Assembly: GCA_951406725.2 (NCBI GenBank)
Contig: OX597816.1
Location: 76,880,001-76,944,000, forward strand
DNA: 64,000 nt
Direction: 5' to 3'
From: Octopus vulgaris
Taxonomy: Eukaryota
Program-made: the position numbers and the translations under genes
Shown: in pieces, positions 1,299 to 57,620 of the stretch
Layout: each line of letters begins with the position of its first letter
Position numbering within the stretch: position 1 is the first letter of the stretch
The notes under the pieces: generated by a model
Told to the model about the DNA's origin: nothing
What the model saw: the letters and a program-made list of their open reading frames with translations, nothing else
The model's database searches: none

Positions 1299-1380
<82 letters not shown>

Positions 1381-1602
1381 GTATGTGTGTGTGTGTGTCT
1401 GTGTTTGTCCCCCCAGCATTGCTTGGCAACCGATGGTGGTGTGTTTACGTCCCCGTCACTTAGCGGTTCGGCAAAACAGACCGATAGAATAAGTACTGGA
1501 CTTACAAAGAATAAGTCCCGGGGTCGATTTGCTCGATTTAAGGCGGTGCTCCAGCATGGCCGCAGTCAAATGACTGAAACAAGTAAAAGAGTAAAAGAGT
1601 AT
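1299..1602 (+). mobile_element. 3' half of tRNA-derived SINE family A (left outer arm of a palindrome)
   Basis: (TA)n, then TGTCCCCCCAGCATTGCTTGGCAACCGATGG...GTAAAAGAGTAAAAGAG tail; near-identical reverse complement of 2925-3200; same body as 7190-7379 and 57400-57620. Confidence 0.85.
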
Positions 1603-1607
1603 ATATG

Positions 1608-1649
<42 letters not shown>

Positions 1650-2370
1650 TAGATAGATAGATAGATAAATATGTGTGTGTGAATGATTATAAGAAGGCGG
1701 TAGTAATTGTGAAGCTTCGTGAATACTCGACTTCGTTAAGTATTCAGATGAATTCCATCATCGGAATTACTTCCAAGGCGCTGTTAATTTGCTTTCGTAA
1801 ACATAAATTATATACTCTACTTATAAATTTTGAAATTTTTCGTTTTGATGTTTTTATATATTTATGCTTAATTATACACACTATGTATAATTATACACGC
1901 ACTCACACAGACACACTCACCAAATACACACATGCATATATATACGCGCGCGCAATATATATATGTAAATATTTATATATATATGTATATGTATATATAC
2001 ATATACATATACATATATATGTATATGTTGGTGAGCATATATATATATATATACATATATATATATTGCGCGCGTATATATATGCATATGTGTGTATTTG
2101 GTGAGTGTGTCTGTGTGAGTGCGTGTATAATTATACATAGCGTGTATAATTAAGCATAAATATATAAAAACATCAAAACGAAAAATTTCAAAATTTATAA
2201 GTAGAGTATATAGTTTATGTTTACGAAAGCAAATTAACAGCGCCTTGGAAGTAATTCCGATGATGGAATTCATCTGAATACTTAACGAAGTCGAGTATTC
2301 ACGAAGCTTCAAAATTACTACCGCCTTCTTATAATCATTCACACACACACACACATATTATCTATATATA

Positions 2371-2873
2371 TCTATATATATAAAACTCTAGTTGTGTGAG
2401 TGTCTGTCCCCTTCGATTTAGATTCCTAACTCCTCCCACATTTTGCGGTGCAGTTTAACCAAATTCGGGTATCTTATAGTTGTGATTCATATCGAGCCCG
2501 TCTGACTATTAGCGCGCGTCAACGATGAGTCTACGATTTTAAAATAATTTAACATCATTTTTTATTCCATTTTAATGCATAAAATGCATCGTGTGTCGAT
2601 GGCGGCGGAGTTGGCGTCCACGCTCACAGCTGCACCTGTTTGCTTCTCCCCATTCCCTCCCTCGTGAAGCTGTGGGGAAGGGAGTGTAAAGAAATCAACG
2701 TCGTAATGCGTTGTGAAGGAGACCAGCGTTCTTTTAGAACAACGACTTCATGGCTTGAAGACACCAAAACAAAAATGGCTAAGAAAGCCCGAATTTATAA
2801 TGAAGTAACTCTCTAAAAATGCTTATATAGTTATTTCCCTTACAAACCCGAGCAACGCCGGGCGATACTGCTA

Positions 2874-2874
<1 letters not shown>
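2371..2874 (+). mobile_element. Non-autonomous Helitron
   Basis: 5' TCTATATATATAAAA; 3' GC hairpin CCCGAGCAACGCCGGG followed by CGATACTG-CTAG; inserted between A and T with no TSD. Confidence 0.85.
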
Positions 2875-2924
<50 letters not shown>

Positions 2925-2928
<4 letters not shown>

Positions 2929-3139
2929 TACTCTTTTACTCTTTTACTTGTTTCAGTCATTTGACTGCGGCCATGCTGGAGCACCGCCTTAAATCGAGCA
3001 ACTCGACCCCGGGACTTATTCTTTGTAAGTCCAGTACTTATTCTATCGGTCTCTTTTGCCGAACCGCTAAGTGACGGGGACGTAAACACACCACCATCGG
3101 TTGCCAAGCAATGCTGGGGGGACAAACACAGACACACAA

Positions 3140-3203
<64 letters not shown>

Positions 3204-3360
3204 GACAGGCTTCTTTCAGTTTCCGTCTACCAAATCCACTCACAAGGCATTGGTCGGCCCGGGGCTATAGCAGAAGACACTTGCCCAAGATGCCACGCAG
3301 TGGGACTGAATCCGGAACCATGTGGTTGGTTAGCAAGCTACTTACCACACAGCCATTCCT

Positions 3361-3438: not shown

Positions 3439-3609
3439 CATACAAAGTAAGTGAAAGGGGTTCGGGTAGACCAGGCGTTAACCTCAGGTAGCACTCTCAC
3501 GAGTGGTAGCTATCTACATTTGTATGAAGGAGAATTTCTACAGTAGAAACATAAGTTTGTGACAAACAGATAATCTGAAATGTTTAAATCCATCACTGCA
3601 TATAAATAA

Positions 3610-3992
3610 CTAGCAGTATCGCCCGGCGTTGCTCGGGTTTGTAAGGGAAATAACTATATAAGCATTTTTAGTGAGTTATAGCAAAAAATGCATTAAAAAT
3701 GGAATAAAAAATTATAGTAATTTTTTTTTAAATCGTTGACTCATCGTAGACATTTTTAGAGAGTTACTTCCCTTATATAATAGCGAAAAAATGCATTAAA
3801 ATGGAAAAAGTGATGGTAAATTTTTTTAAATCGTAGACTCATCGTAGACGCGCGCTAATACCCAGAAGGGCTCGATATGAATCACGACTATAAGATACCC
3901 GGTTTTGGTTAAACTGCACCGCAAAATGTGGGAGTAGTTAGGAATCTAAATCGTAAGAGACAGACACACAACTTCACTTTTATATATAAAGA
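3610..3992 (-). mobile_element. Non-autonomous Helitron (same family as 2371-2874)
   Basis: Minus strand starts TCTTTATATATAAAAG and ends with the same hairpin + CTAG; A|T insertion site. Confidence 0.85.
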
Positions 3993-5131
3993 TTTGTGCA
4001 ACAACTAAAACATTCGGTTGCGCAAATTGTTTGCACAGGAAACCCGCCCTGTGTGGCGGTTTTTGCCGTTTTTGTGGATCTGTTTCAGCTTTTTTTTAGC
4101 GATTTCTGTTTTGGCGACTTCAAGCCATGAAGTCGTTGTTCTAAAAGAACGCTGGTCTCCTTGACAACGCTTTACGACGTTGATTTCCCTACCCTGCCTT
4201 CCCCACAGCTTCACGAGGGAGGGAAGAAGGGGAGGAGCTACACAGGTGCAGGTGCGAGCATGAACGCCAACGCCGCCACCGACACACGAAAAAATTGGAA
4301 GAACCCAGACGACAGCTTCAGCCACCACCACAACCACCACCACTACCACCATGACCACCACCACCACTACGCCTATGACCATCACCAACACCATCATGAA
4401 GACCACCACGACCACCACCATCATCACCACCACCACACCACCACCATCATCACCACCCCCACCACCACCACCACCACCACCACCATCACCACTACCAGCA
4501 CCACCGCCACCACCGCTTCCACTACCACCGCCTCCACCACCACCATAATATGCCTCTGCTCTCTCCTTTTGGCTACTAAATCCATTACCATATTTCACAA
4601 GTACCATCGCCATACAATATTGCCTTCAAACGTTTGTGTTTGGATAATATTTCTTAAGTAAAAGTTGTGCAACAACTAAAACATTCGATTGTGCAAATTG
4701 TTTGCACGGGAAACCTTCCCTGTGTGGCGTGTTTCCCGATTTTGTAGAATTTGCTTTCGGGCTTTCTTAGCCATTTCTGTTTTGGTGTCTTCAAGCCATG
4801 AGGTCGTTGTTCTAAAAGAACGCTGGTCTCCTTAACAACGCTTTACAACGTTGATTTCCTTACACTCCCTTCCCCACATCTTAACGAGGGAGGGAAGAAG
4901 GGGGAGAAGCAATTTAAAAAATATGCGTTAAAATGGAAAAAAATGATGTTAAATTATTTTTAAAATTGTAGACTCATCGTAGACGCGCGCTAATACCCAG
5001 ACGGGCTCGATATGAATCACGACTATAAGATACCCGAATTTGGTTAAACTGCACCGCAAAATGTGGGAGTAGTTAGGAATCTAAATCGTAGGAGACAGAC
5101 ACTCACACAACTTCACTTTTATAAATATAGA
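3993..5131 (-). mobile_element. Helitron 5' portion with internal duplication and (CCA)n tract
   Basis: Second TC-start terminus at 5131; 4930-5120 matches the 5' region of the other two Helitrons; ~250-bp direct repeat at 3993-4240 and 4664-4910. Confidence 0.7.
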
Positions 5132-5799
5132 TAAGTGAATACTTGAGCAACTGCCATTAGTATGTAATATATATAAGACCTGCTACGACATCCTTCATTT
5201 ATTACATAGTCGAGACTAGCATACCGAAGCGTCAAAATCACTGTCACCACTCAACTTATAAAAGTTAAATAAATATGCGTTGGAGTGGCTGTGTGGTATA
5301 GGTGTAGTAGTAGCTGTGTGGTAAGTAGCTTGCTTACCTACTTCCCATGAGTATCTGTTGTCAGTGTACGCATGTGTCATTGTGTTGTGCACCGAAGAAG
5401 ATAGCCGGCAGTGTTTAGCCTGCCAAAAGAAGCTGCTGCAAGGTAAGACTTTTGTCTCTTGGATCCAGTGGGGGTTGTTGTCTGTGGTTATATTTTTCAC
5501 AAACAAGGAGTCCTCACTTGATTCACGATGTTGGTCTGCTTATGGTTCAGCAATGTTGTTCACATTAAGTGAAAATCTTTTTTCTCATTGTGAGAAGTAC
5601 AGTTTGGGGGCATATCCTTCAACCAAAGTCGTCCACTATTTGTAAATAGTGTGTATTTTTACATTTACGTTTACCAATAATTGGAAAGCTATATTTCAAG
5701 TGGTGCAGTCCAGGTTCTAATCGGGGTACCAGAGAGCTTGGAGTACTTGAATGCCCAGAAGATTTTTTTGCTGTGAACTGTTGAACAGTTGTTTTCTTC

Positions 5800-6940: not shown

Positions 6941-7084
6941 AGTAGCTTGTTTACGAACCACATGGTTCCGGGTTCAGTCCCTCTGCGTGGCACCTTGGGC
7001 AAGTGTCTTCTGCTATAGTCTCGGGCCAACGAACGCCTTGTGAGTGGATTTGGTAAACGGAAGCTGAAAAAAGCCCGTCGAATA

Positions 7085-7142
<58 letters not shown>

Positions 7143-7379
7143 TGTGTGTGTGTGTATGTGTGTATATTTTTGTGCGTCTGTGTTCTTCCCCCCAACATCG
7201 CTTGACAACCGATGCTGGTGTGTTTACGTCCCCGTAACTTAGCGGTTCGGAAAAAGAGACCGATAGAATAAGTACTAGGCTTACAAAGAATAAGTCCTGG
7301 GGTCGATTTGCTCGACTAAAGACTAAAGGTGGTGCTCCTGCATGGCCACACTCACATGACTCAAACAAGTAAAAGAGTA
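6941..7379 (+). mobile_element. tRNA-derived SINE family A
   Basis: B-box GGTTCAGTCCC, internal (TA)n, same body and GTAAAAGAG tail as the other copies. Confidence 0.85.
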
Positions 7380-7436: not shown

Positions 7437-7478
<42 letters not shown>

Positions 7479-7524
7479 CTGCATATACCTGTATATTTAT
7501 ACCTATTGATAGCTAGCTAGGTAG

Positions 7525-7572
<48 letters not shown>

Positions 7573-7654
7573 AAGGGTGAAAAGGAGCACACGAGTTGAT
7601 ATATATGAAAAAACAAGTAAAAAATAGAAAATGCTAAAATAATTTTATAGTGAA

Positions 7655-7702
7655 CATTTCAGTACCGGTTTCGGTCATTTTGAGACCTTTTCAACTGTAA
7701 CG
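7655..7702 (-). ncRNA. Minimal type I hammerhead ribozyme (U3:A8 variant), left copy
   Basis: Exact reverse complement of 12551-12598. Confidence 0.75.
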
Positions 7703-8388
7703 ATTAAATAATTCAATTTAGAAAAATTAGAAGAAAAGTTTTTTTAAAACAATATTTCTATAGTAGTGTTCAGATTTAAGTGGCATTCTGCCTTTCTCTG
7801 ACTCCCTTGTTTGCACTTGTGTGTTCGAGGTAGTTGTGAGTTCTTGGTAGGGTAGTAGAGGGAAGGCTGGTGAGGAAAGGGGGTGGGAGAATCTGGGAGT
7901 GCCCTGATGGTCGTATTTTGAATGGTCAGTGGCGGCTGGCAGTCTCAGTTCAATTCAGGAGAATATTTATATCGACAGGCTTGTTTATAGAATTAGCGTA
8001 GGTGTTATACTAAAAAACATTAGTGACAAACTTAAGGGGTAGGGGTGGAGAAGAAGAAGAAGAAGAAGGAGAAGGAGAAGGAGAAGATGATGGTGATGGT
8101 GGTGATGATTATGACGACGATGATGATGATAACGATGATGATGAAGAAGAAGAAGAAGAAGAAGGAGGAGAAGGAGAAGATGGTGGTGATGATGGTGGCG
8201 ATGATGATGACGCCGATGATGATGATAACGATGATGATGAAGAAGAAGAAGAAGAAAAAAACAGAGAAGGGAGAATATGAATGGGTGTAAATATAGCTAT
8301 GAAGGGGCTGATTAGTAATGGATTCTATGGAGTGTAGTATTTGTGTGTGTATATATATTTTTTTCTTTTATTCTAAAGTTGAGGTATA

Positions 8389-10092
8389 TTAATTGTTTGT
8401 CGTAGACCCGTTAAGAAGTGGCTTGTATTTTGTAATAAAGAGATTTTCTTTACTTATTCTTTGTCTCGAGGTTGTATCGTCCCTAAATTGGTAGAGGGGG
8501 AAAATTCTGAAGTTTGGTGTTTTTTTGTTGGCGCAAGTATCTATGTGTTGGCTAAAAGCTATTTTTCTGTTTTGGGGAATTTTTATCTGGGATCTGTGCA
8601 GGGCCATTCGTTTACGCAAACCATTTTTTGTTTGGCCTATGTACTGCTCTTGACACCCGGAGCAGGTTAGTGAGTATATTAGGTTCTCCGAAGCACATGT
8701 GAAGTTGCTTTTCACTGTAAACCGTTGTCCCTGTTTGAAGGAGAACTCAGAACCCTCGATTAGATAGTCGCATATCCCGCAATTGGGTCTTCCACATTTT
8801 TTTACTGTCGGCTTCTGTGTTGAAGAGTGAATTCGGGCTTGTGTAAGGAGACTTTTCATGGATCTAGGCTGTCTTTTGCTTTTTATGATCGTGTGTGTTT
8901 GGAGGATTGTGTTCATTCTGTGGTCTTTTTTTAGGAGGGGTATGTTGTGGAGGATGGTGTTGAAGGCTTCGTTATTGAGAGGGTTGTGTGTGGAGATGTA
9001 TGGTAAGGCTTTTGGTTGTAAGTTTTTCTTTGATTTGGGATGTCTCAGTTCCTTGATGTTAAGTTGAAGGGCACGTTGAATGCACTTGTCAATAAGTGAA
9101 GGTGGATAGTTCCTGGTGATTAGGGTATCTTTTAGTTCTTGTAGTCGTGTGTCTCTGGTGTTTGCGTTAGAGACTATAGTGCATATCCTTTTTGCTAGAT
9201 TGAAGGGGATATTCATCCTGGTGTGTCTGGGGTGGCATGAATTGAATGGAAGATATTGCTTAGAGTCTGTAGGCTTATAGTATATGTCTGTTTCTATTAT
9301 ATTATTAGCTTTCTTAATGAGGATATCGAGGAAGGGGAGTTGTTGTTGGCTATATTCCATCGTGAATTGGATGTTTACGTCCAGTCCGTTTAAAATTTTC
9401 TGGAATTCTATGAGTTTTTCTATATTTTTATGCCAAAGGATGAAACAGTCATCTAGATATCTCTTCCAGTTGTTTTCTATGTAGAGGTTGTGGGGGATAT
9501 TGGAGTAGAGGTTGACTACATCGAAGGATACCAGTATGGTGTTTTTGTTTATAGTATTCGGTAGGTGATTGAGCATATCTAAGTCGTCCCTTATATAGCT
9601 TTTGACATGTTTGAGGAGTGGTTTTAACAGGGTGTCTAAAAAGTTACTGAGGCGGTGGGTTTCGCATGCGGGACCTGCTATTATGGGTCTCAATTTGAGG
9701 TCATTACGATTAGGGACTTTAATTATTTTGTCTGTAGCTATCTTGCATGCGTTGCTTATTTTTTCACTTTTGTGGATCTTAGGTATACCGTAGAATTGGC
9801 TAGTTTCTTCTTTTAGTTCTTCTTTTTCACAGTCCTCTTTCCATAGTTTGGAGAACTTCTCTTGATCTGGGCCTTGGGTCATTTTGCGAATTTCTTCGTT
9901 GATATCTTCATCGGTGGATTTTATTTTATCCTCATTCGTTTGGGCCCTCAATTTCAGAAGTTCTATTTCCATTTTCATTTTTTCCAGTGCCATTCTCTCC
10001 CTGAGGTGTCTTTGTGTTTCAGGTTCTTCTGTAATAGCTTTGAACTGGAAGACACAACATACTATGAAAAGGCACAAAACTACAGTCAACAA
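8389..10092 (-). CDS. Penelope-like RT/GIY-YIG polyprotein, internally deleted copy
   Basis: FYGIPKIHK, LRPII, SFDVVNLYSNIP, RYLDD, CGRPNCGIC and LIY..TCSGC..QYIGQT present; lacks 87 aa including QKSGTAMG; track start is TTG, first ATG at 9993. Confidence 0.8.
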   Translation of the reverse strand: MLTVVLCLFIVCCVFQFKAITEEPETQRHLRERMALEKMKMEIELLKLRAQTNEDKIKSTDEDINEEIRKMTQGPDQEKFSKLWKEDCEKEELKEETSQFYGIPKIHKSEKISNACKIATDKIIKVPNRNDLKLRPIIAGPACETHRLSNFLDTLLKPLLKHVKSYIRDDLDMLNHLPNTINKNTILVSFDVVNLYSNIPHNLYIENNWKRYLDDCFILWHKNIEKLIEFQKILNGLDVNIQFTMEYSQQQLPFLDILIKKANNIIETDIYYKPTDSKQYLPFNSCHPRHTRMNIPFNLAKRICTIVSNANTRDTRLQELKDTLITRNYPPSLIDKCIQRALQLNIKELRHPKSKKNLQPKALPYISTHNPLNNEAFNTILHNIPLLKKDHRMNTILQTHTIIKSKRQPRSMKSLLTQARIHSSTQKPTVKKCGRPNCGICDYLIEGSEFSFKQGQRFTVKSNFTCASENLIYSLTCSGCQEQYIGQTKNGLRKRMALHRSQIKIPQNRKIAFSQHIDTCANKKTPNFRIFPLYQFRDDTTSRQRISKENLFITKYKPLLNGSTTNN

Positions 10093-11862
10093 AAAATAAT
10101 GAGGGAACTAAAATCCATATTATACCCATACAAAGCAGGGCTCACCGACAAAGAATATGATTATATGACCAATTTCACAAGTAAAACTAGCCAATTCTAC
10201 GGTATACCTAAGATCCACAAAAGTGAAAAAATAAGCAACGCATGCAAGATAGCTACAGACAAAATAATTAAAGTCCCTAATCGTAATGACCTCAAATTGA
10301 GACCCATAATAGCAGGTCCCGCATGCGAAACCCACCGCCTCAGTAACTTTTTAGACACCCTGTTAAAACCACTCCTCAAACATGTCAAAAGCTATATAAG
10401 GGACGACTTAGATATGCTCAATCACCTACCGAATACTATAAACAAAAACACCATACTGGTATCCTTCGATGTAGTCAACCTCTACTCCAATATCCCCCAC
10501 AACCTAGGACTAGAGGCAATCCAATTCTGGCTAGAGAATCACGCCAACGAACTACCACACCGCATCAAAAAAGAATTTGTGATAGAAGGGGTTAAATTCA
10601 TCCTGGAAAATAACTTCTTCGCCTTCAATGACAACTTCTACCGACAAAAATCGGGGACTGCGATGGGTACACGAATGGCCCCCTCCTTTGCCAACCTAGT
10701 CATAGGATACCTAGAGATCAGTCTGTATCGTAAGGTTCTAGAAAGATATGGCAGCCCTTTCTCCATCTACATAGAAAACAACTGGAAGAGATATCTAGAT
10801 GACTGTTTCATCCTTTGGCATAAAAATATAGAAAAACTCATAGAATTCCAGAAAATTTTAAACGGACTGGACGTAAACATCCAATTCACGATGGAATATA
10901 GCCAACAACAACTCCCCTTCCTCGATATCCTCATTAAGAAAGCTAATAATATAATAGAAACAGACATATACTATAAGCCTACAGACTCTAAGCAATATCT
11001 TCCATTCAATTCATGCCACCCCAGACACACCAGGATGAATATCCCCTTCAATCTAGCAAAAAGGATATGCACTATAGTCTCTAACGCAAACACCAGAGAC
11101 ACACGACTACAAGAACTAAAAGATACCCTAATCACCAGGAACTATCCACCTTCACTTATTGACAAGTGCATTCAACGTGCCCTTCAACTTAACATCAAGG
11201 AACTGAGACATCCCAAATCAAAGAAAAACTTACAACCAAAAGCCTTACCATACATCTCCACACACAACCCTCTCAATAACGAAGCCTTCGACACCATCCT
11301 CCACAACATACCCCTCCTAAAAAAAGACCACAGAATGAACACAATCCTCCAAACACACACGATCATAAAAAGCAAAAGACAGCCTAGATCCATGAAAAGT
11401 CTCCTTACACAAGCCCGAATTCACTCTTCAACACAGAAGCCGACAGTAAAAAAATGTGGAAGACCCAATTGCGGGATATGCGACTATCTAATCGAGGGTT
11501 CTGAGTTCTCCTTCAAACAGGGACAACGGTTTACAGTGAAAAGCAACTTCACATGTGCTTCGGAGAACCTAATATACTCACTAACCTGCTCCGGGTGTCA
11601 AGAGCAGTACATAGGCCAAACAAAAAATGGTTTGCGTAAACGAATGGCCCTGCACAGATCCCAGATAAAAATTCCCCAAAACAGAAAAATAGCTTTTAGC
11701 CAACACATAGATACTTGCGCCAACAAAAAAACACCAAACTTCAGAATTTTCCCCCTCTACCAATTTAGGGACGATACAACCTCGAGACAAAGAATAAGTA
11801 AAGAAAATCTCTTTATTACAAAATACAAGCCACTTCTTAACGGGTCTACGACAAACAATTAA
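9862..11862 (+). CDS. Penelope-like (Neptune-type) reverse transcriptase with Zn-finger linker and C-terminal GIY-YIG endonuclease, 5'-truncated
   Basis: Intact motifs FYGIPKIHK, LRPIIAG, SFDVVNLYSNIP, QKSGTAMG, RYLDD, LPFLD, HPRH, CX4CX2C linker, LIY-YIG with CxxC..H..H. True element sequence starts ~10044; the first ~60 aa are antisense of the other copy; first ATG at 10099. Confidence 0.92.
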   Translation: MIWALGHFANFFVDIFIGGFYFILIRLGPQFQKFYFHFHFFQCHSLPEVSLCFRFFCNSFELEDTTYYEKAQNYSQQKIMRELKSILYPYKAGLTDKEYDYMTNFTSKTSQFYGIPKIHKSEKISNACKIATDKIIKVPNRNDLKLRPIIAGPACETHRLSNFLDTLLKPLLKHVKSYIRDDLDMLNHLPNTINKNTILVSFDVVNLYSNIPHNLGLEAIQFWLENHANELPHRIKKEFVIEGVKFILENNFFAFNDNFYRQKSGTAMGTRMAPSFANLVIGYLEISLYRKVLERYGSPFSIYIENNWKRYLDDCFILWHKNIEKLIEFQKILNGLDVNIQFTMEYSQQQLPFLDILIKKANNIIETDIYYKPTDSKQYLPFNSCHPRHTRMNIPFNLAKRICTIVSNANTRDTRLQELKDTLITRNYPPSLIDKCIQRALQLNIKELRHPKSKKNLQPKALPYISTHNPLNNEAFDTILHNIPLLKKDHRMNTILQTHTIIKSKRQPRSMKSLLTQARIHSSTQKPTVKKCGRPNCGICDYLIEGSEFSFKQGQRFTVKSNFTCASENLIYSLTCSGCQEQYIGQTKNGLRKRMALHRSQIKIPQNRKIAFSQHIDTCANKKTPNFRIFPLYQFRDDTTSRQRISKENLFITKYKPLLNGSTTNN

Positions 11863-11971
11863 TATACCTCAACTTTAGAATAAAAGAAAAAAATATATAT
11901 ACACACACAAATACTACACTCCATAGAATCCATTACTAATCAGCCCCTTCATAGCTATATTTACACCCATT

Positions 11972-12215
11972 CATATTCTCCCTTCTCTGTTTTTTTTCTT
12001 CTTCTTCTTCTTCATCATCATCGTTATCATCATCATCGGCGTCATCATCATCGCCACCATCATCACCACCATCTTCTCCTTCTCCTCCTTCTTCTTCTTC
12101 TTCTTCTTCATCATCATCGTTATCATCATCATCGTCGTCATAATCATCACCACCATCACCATCATCTTCTCCTTCTCCTTCTCCTTCTTCTTCTTCTTCT
12201 TCTCCACCCCCTACC
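11972..12215. repeat. (TCT/TCA)n low-complexity tract in the Penelope 3' UTR (mirror at 8040-8280)
   Basis: Trinucleotide runs with a duplicated ~90-100 bp unit. Confidence 0.85.
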
Positions 12216-12550
12216 CCTTAAGTTTGTCACTAATGTTTTTTAGTATAACACCTACGCTAATTCTATAAACAAGCCTGTCGATATAAATATTCTCCTGAAT
12301 TGAACTGAGACTGCCAGCCGCCACTGACCATTCAAAATACGACCATCAGGGCACTCCCAGATTCTCCCACCCCCTTTCCTCACCAGCCTTCCCTCTACTA
12401 CCCTACCAAGAACTCACAACTACCTCGAACACACAAGTGCAAACAAGGGAGTCAGAGAAAGGCAGAATGCCACTTAAATCTGAACACTACTATAGAAATA
12501 TTGTTTTAAAAAAACTTTTCTTCTAATTTTTCTAAATTGAATTATTTAAT

Positions 12551-12598
12551 CGTTACAGTTGAAAAGGTCTCAAAATGACCGAAACCGGTACTGAAATG
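12551..12598 (+). ncRNA. Minimal type I hammerhead ribozyme (U3:A8 variant) in the Penelope pseudo-LTR
   Basis: CGTTACAG-TTGAAAA-GGTC(TCAAAAT)GACC-GAAACCGGTA-CTGAAATG: stem I 7 of 8 pairs, 4-bp stem II, palindromic ACCGGT stem III, GUA cleavage triplet. Confidence 0.8.
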
Positions 12599-12758
12599 TT
12601 CACTATAAAATTATTTTAGCATTTTCTATTTTTTACTTGTTTTTTCATATATATATATATATATATATATAAGTATATATATATATATATATGTATAAAC
12701 GTATATATGCATATATATATATATATACATATATATACATATATATACCTATATATAC

Positions 12759-12828
<70 letters not shown>

Positions 12829-13233
12829 ATATATGCGTATATATACACACTCACACACACAGACTTATGTATTTTTCCAAAAGAAGTAATGTATCTTAGC
12901 GACAGATGTGTAGATACTGATAAAGGTCTCTTGAATATTACAATACAATCATTAAAAAATGTAACCATGTAATAGAAATAAGATTTATTCTAGAATTTCA
13001 GTATTGTTATTCAATCATTACTTTGTTCAACCATTATTCTCTATATCATTTTAAAAACAATAAATAAAGCAATAATAATATTAATCGTTATTTCTTTTAT
13101 TCGCCTCAAGGGTGGAAAATAGGAGGAATTACAAGGACAAATTATAAAATCCATAGGGGCTTCAACAGAAATCGATTATGAAAAATTAAAAAAAGAAAAA
13201 AAAACAAGCATACAAAACAACAACCATTACTGC

Positions 13234-15721: not shown

Positions 15722-18343
15722 AGAAATAGAAAAGGAGAAAATAGCCCTGCCATGGAAGAAGTTGAAAACTTCTGGAAAAATATCTGGAGTGATGAAAATA
15801 CAATGAAATTGCAGACTGGATTAGACGCACAGAAGGATCCTACCAGAATTTACCAAAGACATGGGAATGCATCACAGTAGCAGACCTAAGGATGAAACGC
15901 ACGAAGGCTCATAAGAGGAAATGTCCTAGTAATGATGGGTGCCAAATTTTGAGCTTGCCTCGCTCCCGTGCGCACACGAAAAGTTAGTCCAATTATTCAA
16001 TGAAATTATGAGAGATCCTACGGAAACACCTGATTGGTTAGCCAGAAGAATAATGAAACCAAATTTCCCCAAAACTATCGACCCATAACATATCTATCTA
16101 CCATGTATAAAATTTTAACATCCATCCTCGAGGAGAAAACATGCAAATTTATAGAACGATATTTTCACAACTTAACAAAAAAGATGGCGACGAGGCTCAT
16201 ATGGATGCAAAGACCAACTCTTAATCAATCGCATGATCCTTGAGAACTGTCATAACAAACGCAGAAATTTCAATTCTGCATGGAATCATTATGAAAAGGC
16301 TTTCGACAGCATACCACATTCATGAATCTTGAAATCGCTGGATATCTTCAAACTTTATCCTGTAATTTCAAATTTCCTGAAGCACATGCCAATGTGGAAT
16401 ATGAATCTCCAATTATACCATTCTAATGGAGAATTGACCACAAAAATTATCAATATCAACTGCAACATTTTCCAAGGTGACATACTTTCAACTTTAATTT
16501 TCTGCATAGTCCTAATACCCCTTACAAGTGTGCTTAACAGAACAGGGTATGGATATAAAATTGGCAGCAAGGAATTAAGTCATCTATTTTATATGGATGA
16601 CTTAAAACTCTATAGCAAAGACGATAATGAGTTTGAAGGGCTACAACGTATTGTGAAAGCATTCAGTGATGAAATCGGGGTCGAATTTAGTCTTGATAAA
16701 TGTGCTAAGGCCACTTTCCAGAAAGGGAAACCGATGACCTCATTTTCAATGGTATTGGATGTTGACACAGTCATAAAAGAACTCGAGCAGGAACAAACTT
16801 ACAAATACCTCGGAATAAATTAAGGCTCTGGCATTCAGCATGCACGTATGAAAGAGATCAGGAAGGAGTGTTACAGGAGAGTTCCAGCAGTCATAAAATC
16901 CAAGTTAAATGCACGTAACAAGGTGTTAACTATAAATTCTTTCGCAGTTCCGGTTGTTATTTACAGCTTCAATGTGTTGAACTGGAATATGAGCAAAATA
17001 AGGAAGATTGGCAGGAAAATCCGTAAGCTGCTGACTTGTAATAACACGCACCACCCAAAGGTAGACGCATATAGCCTTTACCCATCCAGAGCTCAAGGAG
17101 GTCGAAGCTTGATCCAATTTGATCTCTCCTACAAAACCACCGCAATTGGACTGGTAAAATATCTTGAAACATCTAACAGCTGGATGCTCGTTGAGAACCA
17201 TGAAAAACGTAAGAAGCTTCATTCTGTTATGAAGGAGAGGAAAAAGGCTAAAGTGAGATTATGCACAATATCCCGGTTGAACAGCATGATGGAAGTACAG
17301 CAACTGCAGTTGCAAAGGTGAAATTAATAGCAAAGCAAAATGCATTTGAACAATCTGCTGATAGGTGGGAACAAAAACCTCTGCATGGCAAATATGTGGC
17401 CTGTCTAACAAGCTGATGTAGACCAAAAGCACAGCCATCAGTGGCTGCGGAGCTCAGGGCTAAAGGTAGAGAGTGAAGGCTTTATCTTGGCTGCCCAAGC
17501 TCAGACATTATTAATTCGGAACTATCAAGCCAATGTGATGAAAAATGGTGTAGATCCAAAGTGCCGATACTTCAACGATGGGAAAGAAATAGTAGACCAC
17601 CTAATCATTGGATGTAAGCTCTTGGCACCTGTAGAGTACAAATCATGACGTGACAGAGCTGGCCAATATCTGCATTGGATAACGTGTCGACATTATGAAA
17701 TCAAGTTTGCTGACAAACGGTACAAACACTACCCTGAGGGAGAAAATGTAACTACTCTTTGGGACTTCCCAGTATGTACAGACCAGCCCATCAAAACAAA
17801 TAATCCAGATATTGTTGTGAAAGACTGAAAAAATAAAGTCTGTTTATTGATTGACATGAGCATACCCTGTGACCATAATATGTCGGCAAAAGAATTTGAT
17901 AAGCTCATAAAATATAAAGATTTGCTAATCGAAATCGAAAAGATGTGGCATCTCAGGACGGTTACAATACCAGTGATTGTAGGAAAACTTAGAATGATCA
18001 AAGAAAGAACTGAAAATTATTTAAGAATGATCTCTGGCTTACCATCCATGCTGTAAGAGCAAAAGATTGTCTTAACTGGTACGTCACGAGTACTGAGAAG
18101 AGCATTTTCGCTGTGAATTTTCTTTCCTTTTTCCCCGCTTTATTTTATTTGTTTACTTTTTTTATATTTTCCTTTTTCTCTCTGTCTTCCCCTATTTCTC
18201 TATCACATGACTTTGTAAATGAGCAATCTGGTGTATTTATTTTAATGACCTACCAATGTATACAGAACGTTTCTCTGCCCTAGTTGCCAGGAAGACGCTC
18301 GGCAAGAAGATGCTAAGAAAGAAGATGCTAATGAAACTAATGA

Positions 18344-43079: not shown

Positions 43080-43136
<57 letters not shown>

Positions 43137-43202
43137 ATTATCATTATTTTTATTTTTATTATTATTTTTATTATTATTATTATTACTATTATTATTATTA
43201 TG

Positions 43203-43436
43203 GAGTGAGAGAGCGATCCATGGTATCAAAGTGACACTGGGGTAAAATATACGAAGCCCATATACCCATCATGACTACCCGTCTGATGAAGGTACACCAG
43301 GCACTTGCATCATATGTGCGCAACATAGTGAACTCATATCATGATATACTGCGCATGATCCTGCAGGTGGGGCCCAGTTAGAATTTTCTTCGGGTCGTGT
43401 AGCCCATCCCGCTCACAAGGTCCCTGAATAAGAGTT
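43203..43436 (-). mobile_element. Partial copy of the 555-bp (TAA)n-associated element
   Basis: Matches 48368-48605; follows (TTA)n; fused to a SINE A 3' end. Confidence 0.8.
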
Positions 43437-43889
43437 GTATGGACAAAGAATAAGTCCTGAAGTCGATTTGTTTGACTAAAGGCTCTGCTCCAGCATGGCC
43501 GAAGTCAAAAGGCTGAAACAAGTAAAAGAGTAAAAGAGTATATGAAGTTTTTAAAATTTACTGGAGATGATCTTTTCTCTGTCCGAACAGAGAAAACTGT
43601 AGTGTTCTTGGAATAAAGAGTATGTTTACATTTTCGAATACTCAGGGGAATAAAAATGATAGGTATTCACAGAAGGTTTTATATTAAAGGTTTTATAGCT
43701 GATTGTTTATGTGTTCGAAATCTGTAGATACGTAAGTCACTTAACTTATTTTGAGGGAAATACAAAATGCTCACAGGAAACTGTAGATAGTCCAGTCTTT
43801 TAGAGTTATGTTTTTAGTTGTCCTGCTGGGTTGTATTAGTGTTTCTGTGTCTTCAGGTCAGATCAGCGAAGAACACGTCCAGCCGCCTA

Positions 43890-43961
<72 letters not shown>

Positions 43962-43977
43962 CATTATTATTATTATT

Positions 43978-44132
43978 ATACGTTCTCAGTTCAAACCGAA
44001 GTCGACTTTGCCTTTCATCCTTTCGGGGTCGATAATTTAAGTACCAGTGAAATACTGATATCGATGTAATCGACTAGTCCCCACCTCCAACAAATTTCAG
44101 GCCTTATGACTATAGTAGAAAAGATTATTATT
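43978..44132 (+). mobile_element. SINE family B (3' part)
   Basis: GTCGACTTTGCCTTTCATCCTTTCGGGGTCGATAA core; GATTATTATT tail. Confidence 0.75.
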
Positions 44133-44509
44133 GAGTTAGAATTTTCTTCTGGTCGAGTAGCCCATCCTGCTCAAAAGGTCCTGGAATAAGGATTGATTAA
44201 GGATGTTGAACGAACCACCTATATGTCCAAACGTGAATTATCCAAACCTCCAAGAATTCCTTTCAACACACGGATATGATGCTCCCCCACTACTTCTGCT
44301 AGTGGTCAGAGATTCACATACAGTCAGCCACTAAGGGACATGCTCAACTGGTTAAGGTCAAACAACTGACAAGTAAATCTGTGGTATTGAGCAGAAAATT
44401 TGCTGTAGCCTGTCTTTTATACCAAGACAAAAAAATGTACATGGTAACACTTCCAATCTGTTAAGATCAGAAGCCATGAGAGTCACTATCTGGTACTGCA
44501 TCAGGGCAT
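44133..44509 (-). mobile_element. Shortened copy of the 555-bp element with 18-bp TSD
   Basis: Flanked by GTAGAAA(A/G)GATTATTATT at 44115-44132 and 44510-44527. Confidence 0.8.
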
Positions 44510-44518
44510 GTAGAAAGG

Positions 44519-44586
<68 letters not shown>

Positions 44587-46939
44587 CAGCATATGTTTGA
44601 CTTTTGCTTTATATTTGTACAAGTCTCACCCGGAGACTTCAAGAGACAACAGGTTGGAAGTTCACGTTGTCGTTATGCCTAGTGTGCCATATATTTGGTT
44701 GTTTTTTGTGTTGTACTGGTGGATGTCTAAAAAAATATTTGTTTTAAACCTTGAGATTACATAGAAAGTATTTTGCGTAGGATATGAGCAGTTCCCATGA
44801 GCACTATCTTTTGAATTTCTGCCATTTTGGGGTTTCCTGGTATCTGAGTTAGGTAGCTATCAGCCCCTTTTGCTATCATTCCCAGGGCACCTATGACAAC
44901 AGGTATTGTTTTAGCCTTCAGGTTCCACATTTTGCTGATTTCTATTTCAAGATCTTTATATTTGCTCAGTTTTGGTAGGTCTTGACAGATACGTTTATAT
45001 CGATTGGGACAGTCATATCAATGAGGAGGCATGTTCTTTGTTTGAAGTCTTTCAATATGATGTCTGGCCTATTTGCATCTATCTTTCTGTCAATTTGAAT
45101 GGTGAAGTTCCAGAGGAGTGAGATGTGGTCATTTTCAAGCACTGGAGGTGGTTTGTGTTCCCACCAGTTTTTATCATGGGGCAAATCCAGGTTTTTGCAG
45201 ATTACCCAGTGAATATATTGTGCAGCTCTATCGTGTCTGTTGAGATACTCTGTAGGCGCTAGAAGACTGCACTTGGAGACCATATGATCAATGGTTTCAT
45301 TTTGTCGCTGGCATACACGACACGTTGGACTGCTGCTGATCTTTAATATGTTGGCCTGGTAGTTTCTTGTTGGTAGGCATTGATCTTGAGCTGCTATGAT
45401 AAACCCCTCTGTTTCAGATTTTAAGCCAGAGGCCATTAGCCATTGATGGGTCAGGGCTTTGTCAACATCTGCATTATTCGCTCTCTTTGGGTATTTGCCA
45501 TAGAGAGGTTTTTCTTGCCATTTATCATTCAGAATATCTAAGGCCGCAGATTTAGCACGGGTTTTCATGCGCTTAGCTTTTTCTGTGCCTGTTTCTTGTA
45601 TGTCTATCTCTAATTCCGAAATCTGTTGTATTCGGAATTCACTTAGATATTCCTTTGCCTGTTTTGTGACTGAGTATGATACTTTCTTGTTTTCATGTTT
45701 TGAGACAAGTTTTAACATCCAGTCCTTAGAGTTTTTCAGGTAGGTGTCTAGGCCAATTGTAGCAATCTTCATTGTTATTGCCAGTTGTAAAAGTCCACGG
45801 CCTCCCTCTTTTCTTGGCAGATACAGTCGTTCTGTATCTGCCTTAGGGTGGTGCATTCTATGCATTGTCAACAGTTTTCGTATTTTTCTGTCAAGATTAC
45901 ATATTTCAGTAATTGACCAGTTAACGATATTGAAACTGTAAGTCACGACTGGTATGGCTAATGCATTGATCGCTTCGATCCTGTTTCTCGCATTCAGCTG
46001 TCTTGAGTATTGCTCTTACTCTGCGATAACATTCTCTCCTGATCCTTTCCTTCATCTCTGAATGCCTTATTCCGTCTCCTTCAATTACCCCTAGATACTT
46101 GTAGTTCTCCGCTGGGTCTAATTCTTTTATGACATTCTGCTGGTCAAGGTTAACGTTAGATGTTTCTGTCATTTTTCCTTTGATAAAGGTAACTTTTGCA
46201 CACTTATCGAGGCCAAATTGCATTCTGATGTCATCACTGAATTGTTTGACAATCGCTAGTAAGCCCTTGAGTTGTTGGTCATTTTTTGCAAAGAGCTTTA
46301 AATCATCCATGTAAATGAGATGATTTATATTTTTATCAAACATTTTATATCCGTACTGCGCGTCATTGAGCAGTTTTGAGAGAGGTATTAAGGCTAAACA
46401 GAAGAGGAGTGGTGATAGTGAGTCACCCTGGAAAATGCCACATGAAATGTTTACATCACCAGCATTTAGAGATCCATTGTCACTGTTCAAAGTTAGTGTG
46501 GTTCTCCATGATCTCATACTTACAGACAGAAAGTTTCGCAGAGTAGGTGCTACCTTATACATTTCTAGGCATTTCTTAATCCAGCTATGTGGTAGGCTAT
46601 CAAAAGCCTTTTTATAGTCTATCCAGGCTATTGATAAGTTTTTGTGTCGTTTGTGACAATCTTCTAAGATCATCTTATTGATGAGTAGTTGATCTTTACA
46701 ACCGTAGGATCCACGTTTACATCCTTTCTGTTCATTAGGGAATATGCTGCTGTCTGTCAAAAAACTATAGGTATATTTCGTCAGGACAGATGTTGGTGTT
46801 TTATACATAGTTGTTAAGCAGGTTATGGGTCTATAGCTTTTTGGTTCATTTGTTTCTTCATTTTTTGGAAGCAGAAATGTTAACTCATTAACTAGCCAAG
46901 GAGGTATCCTACTAGGGTGTTGCAAAACATCATTGTAAA

Positions 46940-46940
<1 letters not shown>
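44587..46940 (-). mobile_element. 5'-truncated R4/Dong-clade non-LTR retrotransposon (RT + CCHC + REL endonuclease) in (TAA)n
   Basis: ORFs 45921-46925 and 44966-45946: YRPITCL, DYKKAFDS, GIFQGDSLSP, YMDDLKL, HPKAD..GGRGL, CRVC..ETIDH..C, RHD, RPDII, IDMTVP; two frameshifts; (TTA)n on both sides. Confidence 0.92.
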
Positions 46941-47028
<88 letters not shown>

Positions 47029-47050
47029 TATTATGATGATTATTATTATG

Positions 47051-47092
<42 letters not shown>

Positions 47093-47094
47093 GT

Positions 47095-47945
47095 TATATG
47101 TTTGACTTTTACTTTGTATTTGTAAAAGTTAACAAGTTAGAAGTTCAAGCTCGTGTTATGCCTTGGGTATCATATATTTGGTTTTGCACATAGTATTGTT
47201 CTAGAAAATGTTTAAGAAACCATAAGAAAATTATGTTTGTTTTAAAAAAAAACTTAAGATTACACAGAAAGTATTTTGCGTAGTATATGAGCAGTTCCTA
47301 TTAGCACTATCTTTTGAATGTCTGTCATTTAGGGGTTTCCTGGTATCTGAGCTAGGTAGCAATCAGCCCCTTTTGCTATCATTCCTAGGGCACCTATGAC
47401 AACAGGTATTGTTTTAGTCTTTCAGGTTCCACATGTTTGCCCATTTCTATTTCAACATCTTTATTCTTGCTCAGTTTTTGATAGGTCTTGACAAATACAT
47501 TTATATTGAATGGGACAGTCATATCAATGAGGAGGCATAATTTTTGTCTGAAATCTTTAAATATAATGTCTGGCCTATTCCCATCTATCTTTCTGCCAGT
47601 TTGAACGATGAAGTTCCAGACGAGTGAGATGTGATCATTTTCAAGTACTGGAGGTGGTTGGTGTTCCCACCAGTTTTTATCATGGGGCAAGTCCAGGTTT
47701 TTTCAAATTACCCAATGAATATACTATGCAGCTCTATTATGCCTGTTGAGATACTCTAGGCGAAAGAAGACTGCACATGGAGACAGCATGATCAATGGTT
47801 TCATTTTGTTGTTTACATACACGACATGTTGGGTTAACGCCTTTCTTTAATATGTTGACCTGGTAACTCCTTGTAGGTAAGCATTGATCTTGGGCTGCCA
47901 TGATCTCATACTTTCAGACAAGGGTAGTTTCGCAGAGTAGGTGTT
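47095..47945 (-). mobile_element. Second R4/Dong copy (3' part, internally deleted)
   Basis: Paralogous to 44587-45400; 47899-47945 jumps to sequence matching 46508-46552. Confidence 0.85.
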
Positions 47946-47977
47946 AGTTTTTTATATATATATATATTATTATTATT

Positions 47978-48200
47978 CAGTAGTATTATTTCAGTAGCGT
48001 GCTTTCACTTCACTTTCGAGCGCAGCTCTGTGGGCCTCGGTTATGTGCTGTGCTTTTATGTGATGCGCTTATGGTTACTGTATTGAAAGTGTTTTGCGTA
48101 GGATGCGTGCAGTGCCCAGTAGTGCAATTTTACGTATGTTATATATATTTGTAAGTCCTGGTGTTTTTGTTATGTATTTGTCTGAATATTATGTATCATA
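47978..48200 (-). mobile_element. 3' end of a third R4/Dong family
   Basis: Minus frame KTPGLTNIYNIRKIALLGTARILRKTL*, short UTR, TAA tail. Confidence 0.7.
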
Positions 48201-48202
48201 CC

Positions 48203-48254
<52 letters not shown>

Positions 48255-48323
48255 CTACTTCATTATTATTATCAATCTACTTCATTTTGGGTATTATTAT
48301 TATTATTATTGCTGTTGTTGTTG

Positions 48324-48358
<35 letters not shown>

Positions 48359-48367
48359 GTCATTATT

Positions 48368-49020
<653 letters not shown>

Positions 49021-49089
49021 ATCATTTTTATTATTATCATCATCATCATCATCATCATCATCATTATCATTATTATTATTATTATTATT

Positions 49090-49644
49090 GAGTGAGCGAG
49101 CAGAGCATGCCATCAAAGTGACACTGGGGTAAAATATACGAAGCCCAGTATACCCATCATGACTACCCGTCTGATAAGGGTACACCAGGCACATGCATCA
49201 CAACCATATGTGTGCGACATGGTGATCTCACATCAAGACAAACAGCACATGACCTTGCAGGTGGAGCCCAGTTAGAATTTTCTTCAGATCGAGTAACCCA
49301 TCCCGCTCAAAAGGTCCCTGAATAAGGCTTGTTTAAGGATGTTGAACGAAACACCCATGTTTCCAGAGGTGAATTATTCAAACCCCAAAGAATCCTTCTC
49401 AACACATGGCTATGATGCTCCCCCACTACTTCTGCTCGTGATCAGAGATGCACATATCGTCAGCCACTAAGGGACATGCTCAACTGGTTAAGGTCAAACA
49501 ACTGACAAGCAAATCTGTGGTATTGAGCAGAATATTTGCTGTAGCCCATCTTTTATACCAAGACAAAACAATGTACATGATAACACTTCCAATCAGTTAA
49601 GATCAGAAGCCATGAGAGCCACTGCCTGGTACTGCATCAGAGCA
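49090..49644 (-). mobile_element. ~555-bp non-coding (TAA)n-associated interspersed element, full copy
   Basis: GAGTGAG...GCATCAGAGCA; roughly 93-95% identical by eye to 48368-48920. Confidence 0.85.
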
Positions 49645-49656
49645 TTTATTATTATA

Positions 49657-49701
<45 letters not shown>

Positions 49702-49713
49702 ATCATTTTTATT

Positions 49714-49745
<32 letters not shown>

Positions 49746-49776
49746 TATCATTATTATTATTATTATAATAATAATA

Positions 49777-49821
<45 letters not shown>

Positions 49822-57150: not shown

Positions 57151-57620
57151 GGCGAAGGTGTAGCTGTGTGGTAAGAAGCTTGATTCCCCACCACGTGGTT
57201 TCGTGTTCAGTCCCACTACGTGGACACCTGGGGGAAGTGTCTTCTACAATCGTCTCGAGCTGACCAAAGCTGTTTGAGTGGATTTGGTAGACGAAAACTG
57301 AAAGAAGCCCGTCGTACATATATATATATATATATATATTATGTATGTATGAATGTATGTATGTATGTGTACAAATTTATATTTGTGTCTGTGTTTGTCT
57401 CCTCCTCCACACACATCATCGCTTGGCAACCCATGTAGGTGAGTTTACGTCTCCGTAACTTACCTGTTCGGAAAAAGAGACCGATAGAATAAGTACTAGG
57501 CTTACGAAGAATAAATCCTGGGCTCGATTTGCTTGACTAAAATCCCTAAGGGAGGTGCTCCAGCATGGTCACAGTCAAATGACTGAAACAAGCAAAAGAA
57601 TAAAAGAATAAAAGAATAAA
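57151..57620 (+). mobile_element. Full-length SINE family A
   Basis: GGCGAAGGTGTAGCTGTGTGG head, B-box GTTCAGTCCC, internal (TA)n, AATAAAAG tail repeats. Confidence 0.85.

Follow-up and report, generated by a model that had tools for sequence, protein, structure and literature searches.

Head-to-head copies of a Neptune-type Penelope-like element in a (TA)n microsatellite of Octopus vulgaris: anatomy of the locus and possible routes of its formation

The DNA analyzed here, referred to as the window, is a 64,000-bp stretch of the Octopus vulgaris genome (assembly GCA_951406725.2, contig OX597816.1, positions 76,880,001 to 76,944,000; window coordinates are used throughout). Between two (TA)n-rich microsatellites it carries two copies of a Penelope-like element (PLE) in opposite orientations, so that an inverted repeat is formed that far exceeds chance expectation (Table 1). 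The global alignment of both arms over the 2,208 bases of the left one revealed a single substitution at 8961/11290 (a CpG transition; the left arm has the derived letter), two 1-bp homopolymer indels (8261/11990 in a T-run and 8045/12207 in a C-run), and an in-frame deletion in the left arm (right-arm counterpart 10505-10765) that takes out the reverse transcriptase (RT) motif GTAMG. A first-pass annotation, made by a model from the letters alone, had described the arms as reverse complements whose 3′ ends run outward into (TA)n, with about 30 extra terminal bases on the left copy and a right copy that stops at an internal TATATAT. All of this was found, with the right arm running to 12654 and the left end being 24-30 bases longer than the right (7569/7575-7598). 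The substitution and the 261-bp deletion had also been correctly noted, but only one of the two homopolymer indels. The arms are separated by 377 bp (9807-10183). No mutual match was detected between the 2-kb flanks of the palindrome (BLAST, dust on), so that the structure is not a mirror-image read chimera; a fold-back read chimera was likewise rejected, since the flanks are not mirrored and the arms are not identical.

Table 1. Coordinates of the features of the inverted repeat and its borders
Feature	Position	Strand	Remarks
Left (TA)n-rich target microsatellite	7437..7568	none	
Tail of 24-30 bp that extends the 3′ end of the left copy but not that of the right	7569..7598	-	ends about +89 after the predicted hammerhead cleavage site
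Left arm (RT remnant, endonuclease, 3′ untranslated region, i.e., element 3′ part)	7599..9806	-	complementary, in reverse, to 10184-12654 apart from the 261 bp deleted
Hammerhead motif of the left copy (minimal, type I; U3-A8 core variant with a palindromic helix III)	7657..7700	-	
Trinucleotide-rich repeat, 96-bp period, in the element 3′ untranslated region	8050..8280	-	mirrored at about 11975-12203
Joint of the 261-bp deletion	9485..9486	-	1-bp microhomology; RT motif B gone
4 filler bases at the joint of the ~1,185-bp internal deletion, left copy	9807..9810	-	prolong a local duplication of the preceding A/G-rich motif
Upstream ORF1 piece, 5′ end of the left copy	9811..10050	-	ORF1 profile positions 61-140, E 2e-26
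6-bp microhomology CTGGAA common to the 5′ ends of both copies (head-to-head junction)	10045..10050	none	
Open reading frame of the right copy: RT, CX4CX2C linker (11455-11481), GIY-YIG	10045..11862	+	without about 156 N-terminal residues
Right arm	10184..12654	+	terminus is the element's own TATATAT, +56 after the predicted hammerhead cleavage site
Minimal hammerhead motif (right copy)	12553..12596	+	predicted cleavage after 12590
Right (TA)n-rich target microsatellite	12647..12845	none	

The open reading frame (ORF) of the right copy matched RVT_1 (E 3.2e-8) and, C-terminal to it, the GIY-YIG endonuclease (EN) domain (E 3.8e-4; 21.1 bits, slightly below the cut-off of 22.6). The RT-EN protein yielded 2,163 homologues from 7,542 candidates, the best 62% identical and most of them about 750 aa long; measured against these homologues, the right copy begins near residue 157. 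Those that carry names come from bivalves or were misbinned into symbiont genomes. The CX4CX2C linker (11455) is kept in 119 of 120 homologues, the EN core at 11566 carries CxxC, and among 19 sequences His 537 is invariant and His 554 near-invariant. An RT followed by a C-terminal GIY-YIG within one ORF, together with a CCHH motif that has two Cys between GIY and YIG, corresponds to the definition of EN+ PLEs given in PMC8557442, and a CX2-5CxxC linker between RT and EN corresponds to that of Neptune/Nematis. By these definitions, and without a phylogenetic tree, the element classifies on its sequence features as a Neptune/Nematis-type PLE. The Penelope/Poseidon clade, which is without such a Zn-finger-like linker, was rejected, and so was Naiad/Chlamys, whose EN is N-terminal. 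The Penelope-like identity assigned at first pass was thus borne out by the RT, the linker, the C-terminal GIY-YIG and a minimal hammerhead motif. Both copies are non-autonomous, because the left one has lost RT motif B, which leaves its RT dead, and the right one is without the RT N-terminus and ORF1. Animal-type PLE sequences were also observed in bacterial genome bins, labelled as bacterial GIY-YIG proteins (L001-L045, P0036, P0055, P0064 and P0119); they are probably host contamination.

The spacer between the arms could be read with the help of contigs from public runs (24 runs, 19 of which held half or more of the sampled words, with a maximum of 0.87). Contigs from four runs (X1, X4, X11 and X14), which show presence only, were compared over 9807-11970; of X11 and X14, about 80% and 76% were covered. 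Contig 19 of X4 carries both 9811-10026 and 10045-10904; relative to the element they have one orientation, and 1,046 letters separate them. In X1 the first spacer piece extends to 10050 and the second starts at 10045, and beyond these points the contigs run into other letters, which translate as the homologues predict. From this mapping of both pieces it follows that the left copy is the longer one: its truncation lies about 1.29 kb upstream of the start of the right copy, and it has lost about 1,185 bp (the 1,046 letters between the pieces in the X4 contig plus 139 bp) and 261 bp, both in frame (chance 1 in 9). The 377 bp are the sum of 4 filler bases, 240 bp of ORF1 (minus strand) and 139 bp of the RT N-terminus (plus strand), minus a 6-bp overlap. 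Hence, two element pieces in opposite orientations, as proposed earlier, do make up the spacer, but the point joint placed at about 10043 is in fact the overlap at 10045-10050; the chance of a microhomology of at least 6 bp is 0.001-0.002. That the left piece might be foreign DNA was considered and rejected: the ORF1 family, the profile hits and the X4/X1 contigs all place it in the element. No match to it was found at the N-termini of 120 RT homologues.

The same contigs bear on the origin of the arms. Of 1,832 places compared, 6 distinguish an X1 contig from the window, and at these X4 has the same letters as X1. Five of these places lie in the arms (10283, 11493, 11499, 11502 and 11791; four synonymous, one Pro to Arg), and both arms carry the letter of the window, so that each arm resembles the other more than it does the X1 and X4 contigs of the family. 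These shared private letters, together with one substitution in 2,208 bp, uphold the single source and the young age proposed at first pass. At 11493-11502, three synonymous differences from the X1/X4 contigs fall within 10 bp in both arms, which suggests a distinct or recombinant source copy. Among the 13 joints listed, 10 were internal skips of 44-407 bp (X11, X14), and therefore deletions are common in the family; one was the intact arrangement (X4), one an opposite-strand joint (11386/11516, X14), and one, from 9960 to 11247 (X14), reads as another junction of antisense ORF1 to sense RT. Summed contig depth, which is not a copy number, agreed in X11, was erratic in X14 and climbed toward the 3′ end of the element. 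Among 125 related loci, most close relatives being short contigs, 10 had any inverted repeat of at least 100 bp, and L027 was the only one with RT on both strands, its copies being unlike. A metagenome contig (L110) carries a 1,244-bp perfect terminal inverted repeat (1-1244/7020-8263) around an RT match.

We then consider the element ends. A pattern search for the hammerhead core, helix II and palindromic helix III gave one hit per arm and none elsewhere in the 64 kb, so that by motif both arms carry a hammerhead, for which self-cleavage is predicted; the U3-A8 core variant has already been described (PMC4209133). Rfam returned HH9 alone, with 19.7 bits (E 1.2) against a gathering score of 52, and the isolated RNA folded no better than shuffles (z 0.14, -0.12 and -0.73). 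The earlier claim of a hammerhead in each 3′ end is thus sustained by the motif, but neither by the Rfam score nor by the fold. The two element ends, at +56 and +89 after the hammerhead site, both lie on TA runs. Similar offsets of TA runs were found before the ORF1 start in tandem relatives (L048, +55/+97; L046, +41/+81; L060, +35, +46/+79; L054, +59/+80, +92), and L051 and L008 (3 motifs) have a (TA)n terminus after the hammerhead. By analogy with published PLE tails (PMC8557442, PMC11167929) and from the spacing in the tandem relatives, the extension of the left copy would be element sequence. A branch-point-like, pyrimidine-rich stretch (12530-12558) ends in TTACAG where hammerhead helix I begins; in Drosophila Penelope, an intron end at this helix I position is reported (PMC4209133).

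The ORF1 piece belongs to a family of 74 proteins with a variable alignment (E of at most 0.001 among 1.84 billion), whose full-length members have about 340-470 aa, and no Pfam family was found in more than 2 of 41 members. The core is predicted to be all-helical, with a pLDDT (predicted local distance difference test) of 96-99 over most of residues 120-270. This model of long helices had no Foldseek match at E of at most 0.001, the best one (Z 9.2, root-mean-square deviation 5.3) being among helical bundles. The Atlas feature similarity to Retrotrans_gag was 0.92, but 97 of 256 features were shared. The ORF1 profile matched 6 of the 125 fetched loci, in every case on the RT strand; the match directly precedes an RT ORF or, in a tandem array, follows one. 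The ORF1/RT junction was readable in L002, L046, L049 and L060 (L053 is degenerate and L048 is cut), and in all four the last 40-79 bp of ORF1 are shared with the RT ORF, which lies in the -1 frame, and a TTTTTTA or TTTTTTG is present in phase. FL is present in the last 70 residues of 23 of 25 long ORF1 proteins, versus 3 of 25 in the preceding 70. The arithmetic of the X4 contig (216 + 1,046 letters) gives the -1 frame also for the family of the octopus locus. A stable structure after the slippery site was predicted in one of the four loci (z -2.19) and in none of the other three, pseudoknots lying outside the model. Judged from the sequence, ORF1 and RT are probably linked by programmed -1 frameshifting. 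The two-ORF relatives (L046, L048 and L060, which are tandem arrays, and L002, L049, L053 and L054) share one order: a hammerhead, about 110-140 nt, ORF1, and lastly RT-EN, which follows a U-run heptamer and is in the -1 frame. A frameshift-separated ORF1 with a coiled coil appears in the legend of Figure 1 of PMC8557442 for one type of PLE, and a short unmatched ORF1 is reported for killifish Neptune (PMC12602865). A search confined to the text of papers, figures and Repbase reports lying outside it, turned up none that deals specifically with a frameshifted ORF1 of EN+ PLEs. The ORF1 of the figure legend we take to be that of Athena.

Taken together, the locus very probably results from one recent retrotransposition of a Neptune-type PLE into (TA)n that left two 5′-truncated head-to-head copies. 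For the way in which this happened, we give about an even chance to dual target priming, in which two cDNAs primed on opposite strands would anneal by their 3′ ends. The RT-EN would nick both strands of the self-complementary (TA)n, and each nicked 3′ end would prime cDNA synthesis on element RNA from one source (e.g., two units of one tandem transcript). The left cDNA would start at the outer site, so that it includes the tail, and extend into ORF1, while the right one would start at the inner site, without the tail, and halt in the RT N-terminus. The cDNA 3′ ends, complementary over 6 bases, would then anneal, each serving as template for the second strand of the other, and the two left-arm deletions would be due to RT jumps or to later end-joining. 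The anatomy, the map of the element, the microhomology and the shared private letters are read directly from the sequences, whereas the order of these events, the number of RNAs and the target pairing we infer. As expected of such a product, each arm contains the 3′ end and points outward, and the two join at an internal microhomology (features that a fold-back also gives); dual priming predicts internal microhomology (PMC2837659). Two arguments favor it over a fold-back: the purified PLE protein cuts and extends both strands, with two start sites that bound the tail, as reported for Poseidon in vitro (PMC11167929), and a fold-back requires two later deletions in a locus with a single substitution.

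Several points weigh against dual priming at this locus. Fold-back self-priming followed by later deletions yields the identical product. In PMC2837659, dual priming is put forward as speculation only, and for the L1 element, and PMC11167929 describes RT initiation without target homology. TA runs after the hammerhead were not enriched over shuffles in the three regions tested (P 0.12, 0.52 and 0.47 for L048, L046 and L060), so that pairing of the element's TA runs with the (TA)n target is only plausible. A target-site duplication is unreadable, both flanks being (TA)n with no common non-TA word of at least 10 bases. The 9960/11247 joint has just 29 letters on its short side, with unknown letters between, and the three joints of the locus itself are absent among the 13 joints and 26 pieces listed (4 runs, contigs only), so the locus is without independent support from the public contigs. 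Thus, of the earlier proposal that both strands of (TA)n primed cDNAs that were joined head to head, the head-to-head join with its 6-bp microhomology stands, and the priming is not separable from a fold-back.

In that alternative, which accounts for the locus nearly as well though we put it on the unlikely side, a single left-primed, tailed cDNA would reach ORF1, and its 3′ end would pair with the complementary 6-mer about 1.29 kb back and copy itself outward until TATATAT annealed to the other (TA)n break end; the 1,185-bp and 261-bp deletions of the left arm would arise afterwards by repair of the unstable palindrome. One RNA then accounts for the shared private letters, the 6-bp microhomology and the one-sided tail, and the right copy is nested entirely within the span of the undeleted left copy. 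Filler bases such as those at 9807-9810 resemble templated end-joining. Self-priming has moreover been proposed for head-to-head PLE structures, and microhomology-mediated copy deletions noted, in PMC3846280. The two later deletions, however, would both have to fall in the left arm despite the single substitution in the locus, the larger one shortens the spacer instead of breaking the symmetry, the right end sits where PMC11167929 would place the second RT start site, and the junction is without the hairpin palindrome of the rotifer cases.

We consider it quite improbable that the locus is an assembly or library artefact, in which two copies that lie apart in the genome were brought together by their 5′ ends or one arm was made to match the other by polishing. 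No spanning contig is among those listed, complex PLE insertions are reported to trouble assemblies (PMC8557442), and two of the four arm differences are homopolymer indels; but the flanks are unmirrored, the arms differ by two deletions, the tail and the CpG transition, the ends fit the published one-sided-tail pattern, and similar inverted joints are listed in X14. Similarly improbable are two separate opposite insertions in neighbouring (TA)n, fused by a deletion and/or made alike through gene conversion: members of the family are abundant, most of them 5′-truncated, and the region is rich in (TA)n, but the spacer is without host DNA, the five shared letters differ from the X1/X4 contigs, and head-to-head units are the usual single-event PLE product.

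The layout of the locus is already known for PLEs. An inverted 5′-truncated copy is frequent at the PLE 5′ end, a tail of 30-40 bp is often one-ended, (TA)n is a preferred target (PMC8557442), and head-to-head is the most frequent arrangement (PMC3846280). Complex insertions of EN+ PLEs (Craig et al. 2021, PMC8557442; Arkhipova et al. 2013, PMC3846280) share with the octopus locus the 5′-adjacent inverted truncated copy, the head-to-head order, the one-sided tail (24-30 bp here), the microsatellite target and internal deletions. They differ in the arms, which have 2.2 kb here versus about 200-bp pLTRs (pseudo-long terminal repeats) in the rotifer examples quoted, where long inverted structures are mentioned too. 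The octopus junction is a 6-bp microhomology of two distant element positions, whereas in rotifers it is a short hairpin palindrome, and no direct pLTR lies upstream, unlike in the published complex insertions. Neptune/Nematis elements with C-terminal EN have in common with ours the RT, the CX2-5CxxC linker, a GIY-YIG with two internal Cys and a conserved His, a hammerhead near the 3′ end and the (TA)n target; EN+ PLEs are usually described as single-ORF elements, whereas the octopus family has a separate helical ORF1 of ~400 aa before the RT ORF. Poseidon PAc of Anolis (PMC11167929) is alike in that its two element ends, downstream of the hammerhead, are separated by about 30 nt and in that both target strands are usable. 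Its RT, however, initiates within the ORF, at an AC-rich stem-loop that has no homology to the target, and the octopus ends lie on TA runs upstream of the relatives' ORF1 start (enrichment not significant).

Twin or dual priming of L1 (PMC2837659) likewise joins cDNAs that were primed from opposite strands, with an inverted junction and microhomology. An L1-type twin-priming product, made of non-overlapping pieces of one RNA, was rejected: the two arms have 2.2 kb in common and each contains the 3′ end, which fits only the speculative dual-priming variant of L1. The locus has no poly(A) and no readable target-site duplication. Rearranged copies of Drosophila Penelope (PMC3681739) also form a long inverted repeat and a potential source of double-stranded RNA (dsRNA); small interfering RNAs (siRNAs) were mapped there to the inverted parts, with inefficient silencing, whereas for the octopus locus neither a transcript across it nor small RNA was seen, the runs being contigs. 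The novelty implied by the first-pass annotation was therefore overstated: the inverted copy, one-sided tail, (TA)n preference, two-strand priming and siRNA from inverted copies had all been published. Further background is given in PMC5408684, PMC6431247, PMC13282606 and PMC6515669. The joint between the copies is unusually informative. The route by which PLEs form tandem or inverted ends is described as unsolved in PMC8557442 and PMC11167929, and a young locus with mappable truncation points and a 6-bp microhomology is a useful test case for integration models. The element family seems to hold more such junctions, so that counting them could decide between dual priming and fold-back.

A broader proposal is tentative, and we regard it as doubtful: that the family represents an undescribed two-ORF branch of EN+ PLEs, in which ribosomes would pass from a coiled-coil ORF1 of ~400 aa into RT-EN through programmed -1 frameshifting, the site being a conserved U_UUU_UU(A/G), both RT start sites would be TA runs that pair with doubly nicked (TA)n, and cDNA-annealed head-to-head palindromes would be a regular product. 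If the reading of two ORFs and TA pairing were true, young loci would directly record the PLE integration pathway and would recurrently act as sources of kilobase-long dsRNA. Annotations of such elements may have to be extended by the upstream ORF1 and its conserved -1 slippery site.

At the octopus locus, both terminal repeats (pLTR ends) face outward, and the arms could, judging from their letters, pair over about 2.2 kb if transcribed. No host exon was found among the ORFs of at least 110 aa in the window, a size that short exons would escape. In X4, whose RNA nature is a guess and which has no matched DNA, A>G was found at 7 places versus C>T at 15. A dsRNA, ADAR or endogenous siRNA role of the locus is without support here; most likely it has no function, and one dead insertion would hardly be of consequence for the host.

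Other repeats were observed in the window, whose overall repeat content would fit a cephalopod. A second, older palindrome at 1328-3202 is unrelated to the PLE. Its inner arms (about 1638-2008/2013-2382, 92-94%) meet almost without a spacer in a TA-rich centre, its outer arms (1328-1655/2875-3202) are 97% complementary, and the right arm holds about 500 bp of another repeat; it looks like a fold-back duplication at (TA)n. The segment 2369-2885 and those at 3600-4289 and 4659-5133 are rearranged, inverted copies (86-96%) of one non-coding repeat. A dispersed repeat of ~400 bp, which resembles a short interspersed element and has an internal (TA)n, occurs at 1303-1593, 2932-3353, 6941-7379 and 57163-57607 (80-85% alike), with one copy about 190 bp to the left of the PLE palindrome. 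Frameshifted RT fragments of long interspersed elements, presumably RTE-like, lie on the minus strand at 44966-46940 and on the plus strand at 16326-17321; 43080-49815 is a series of partial direct copies with (ATT)n between them.

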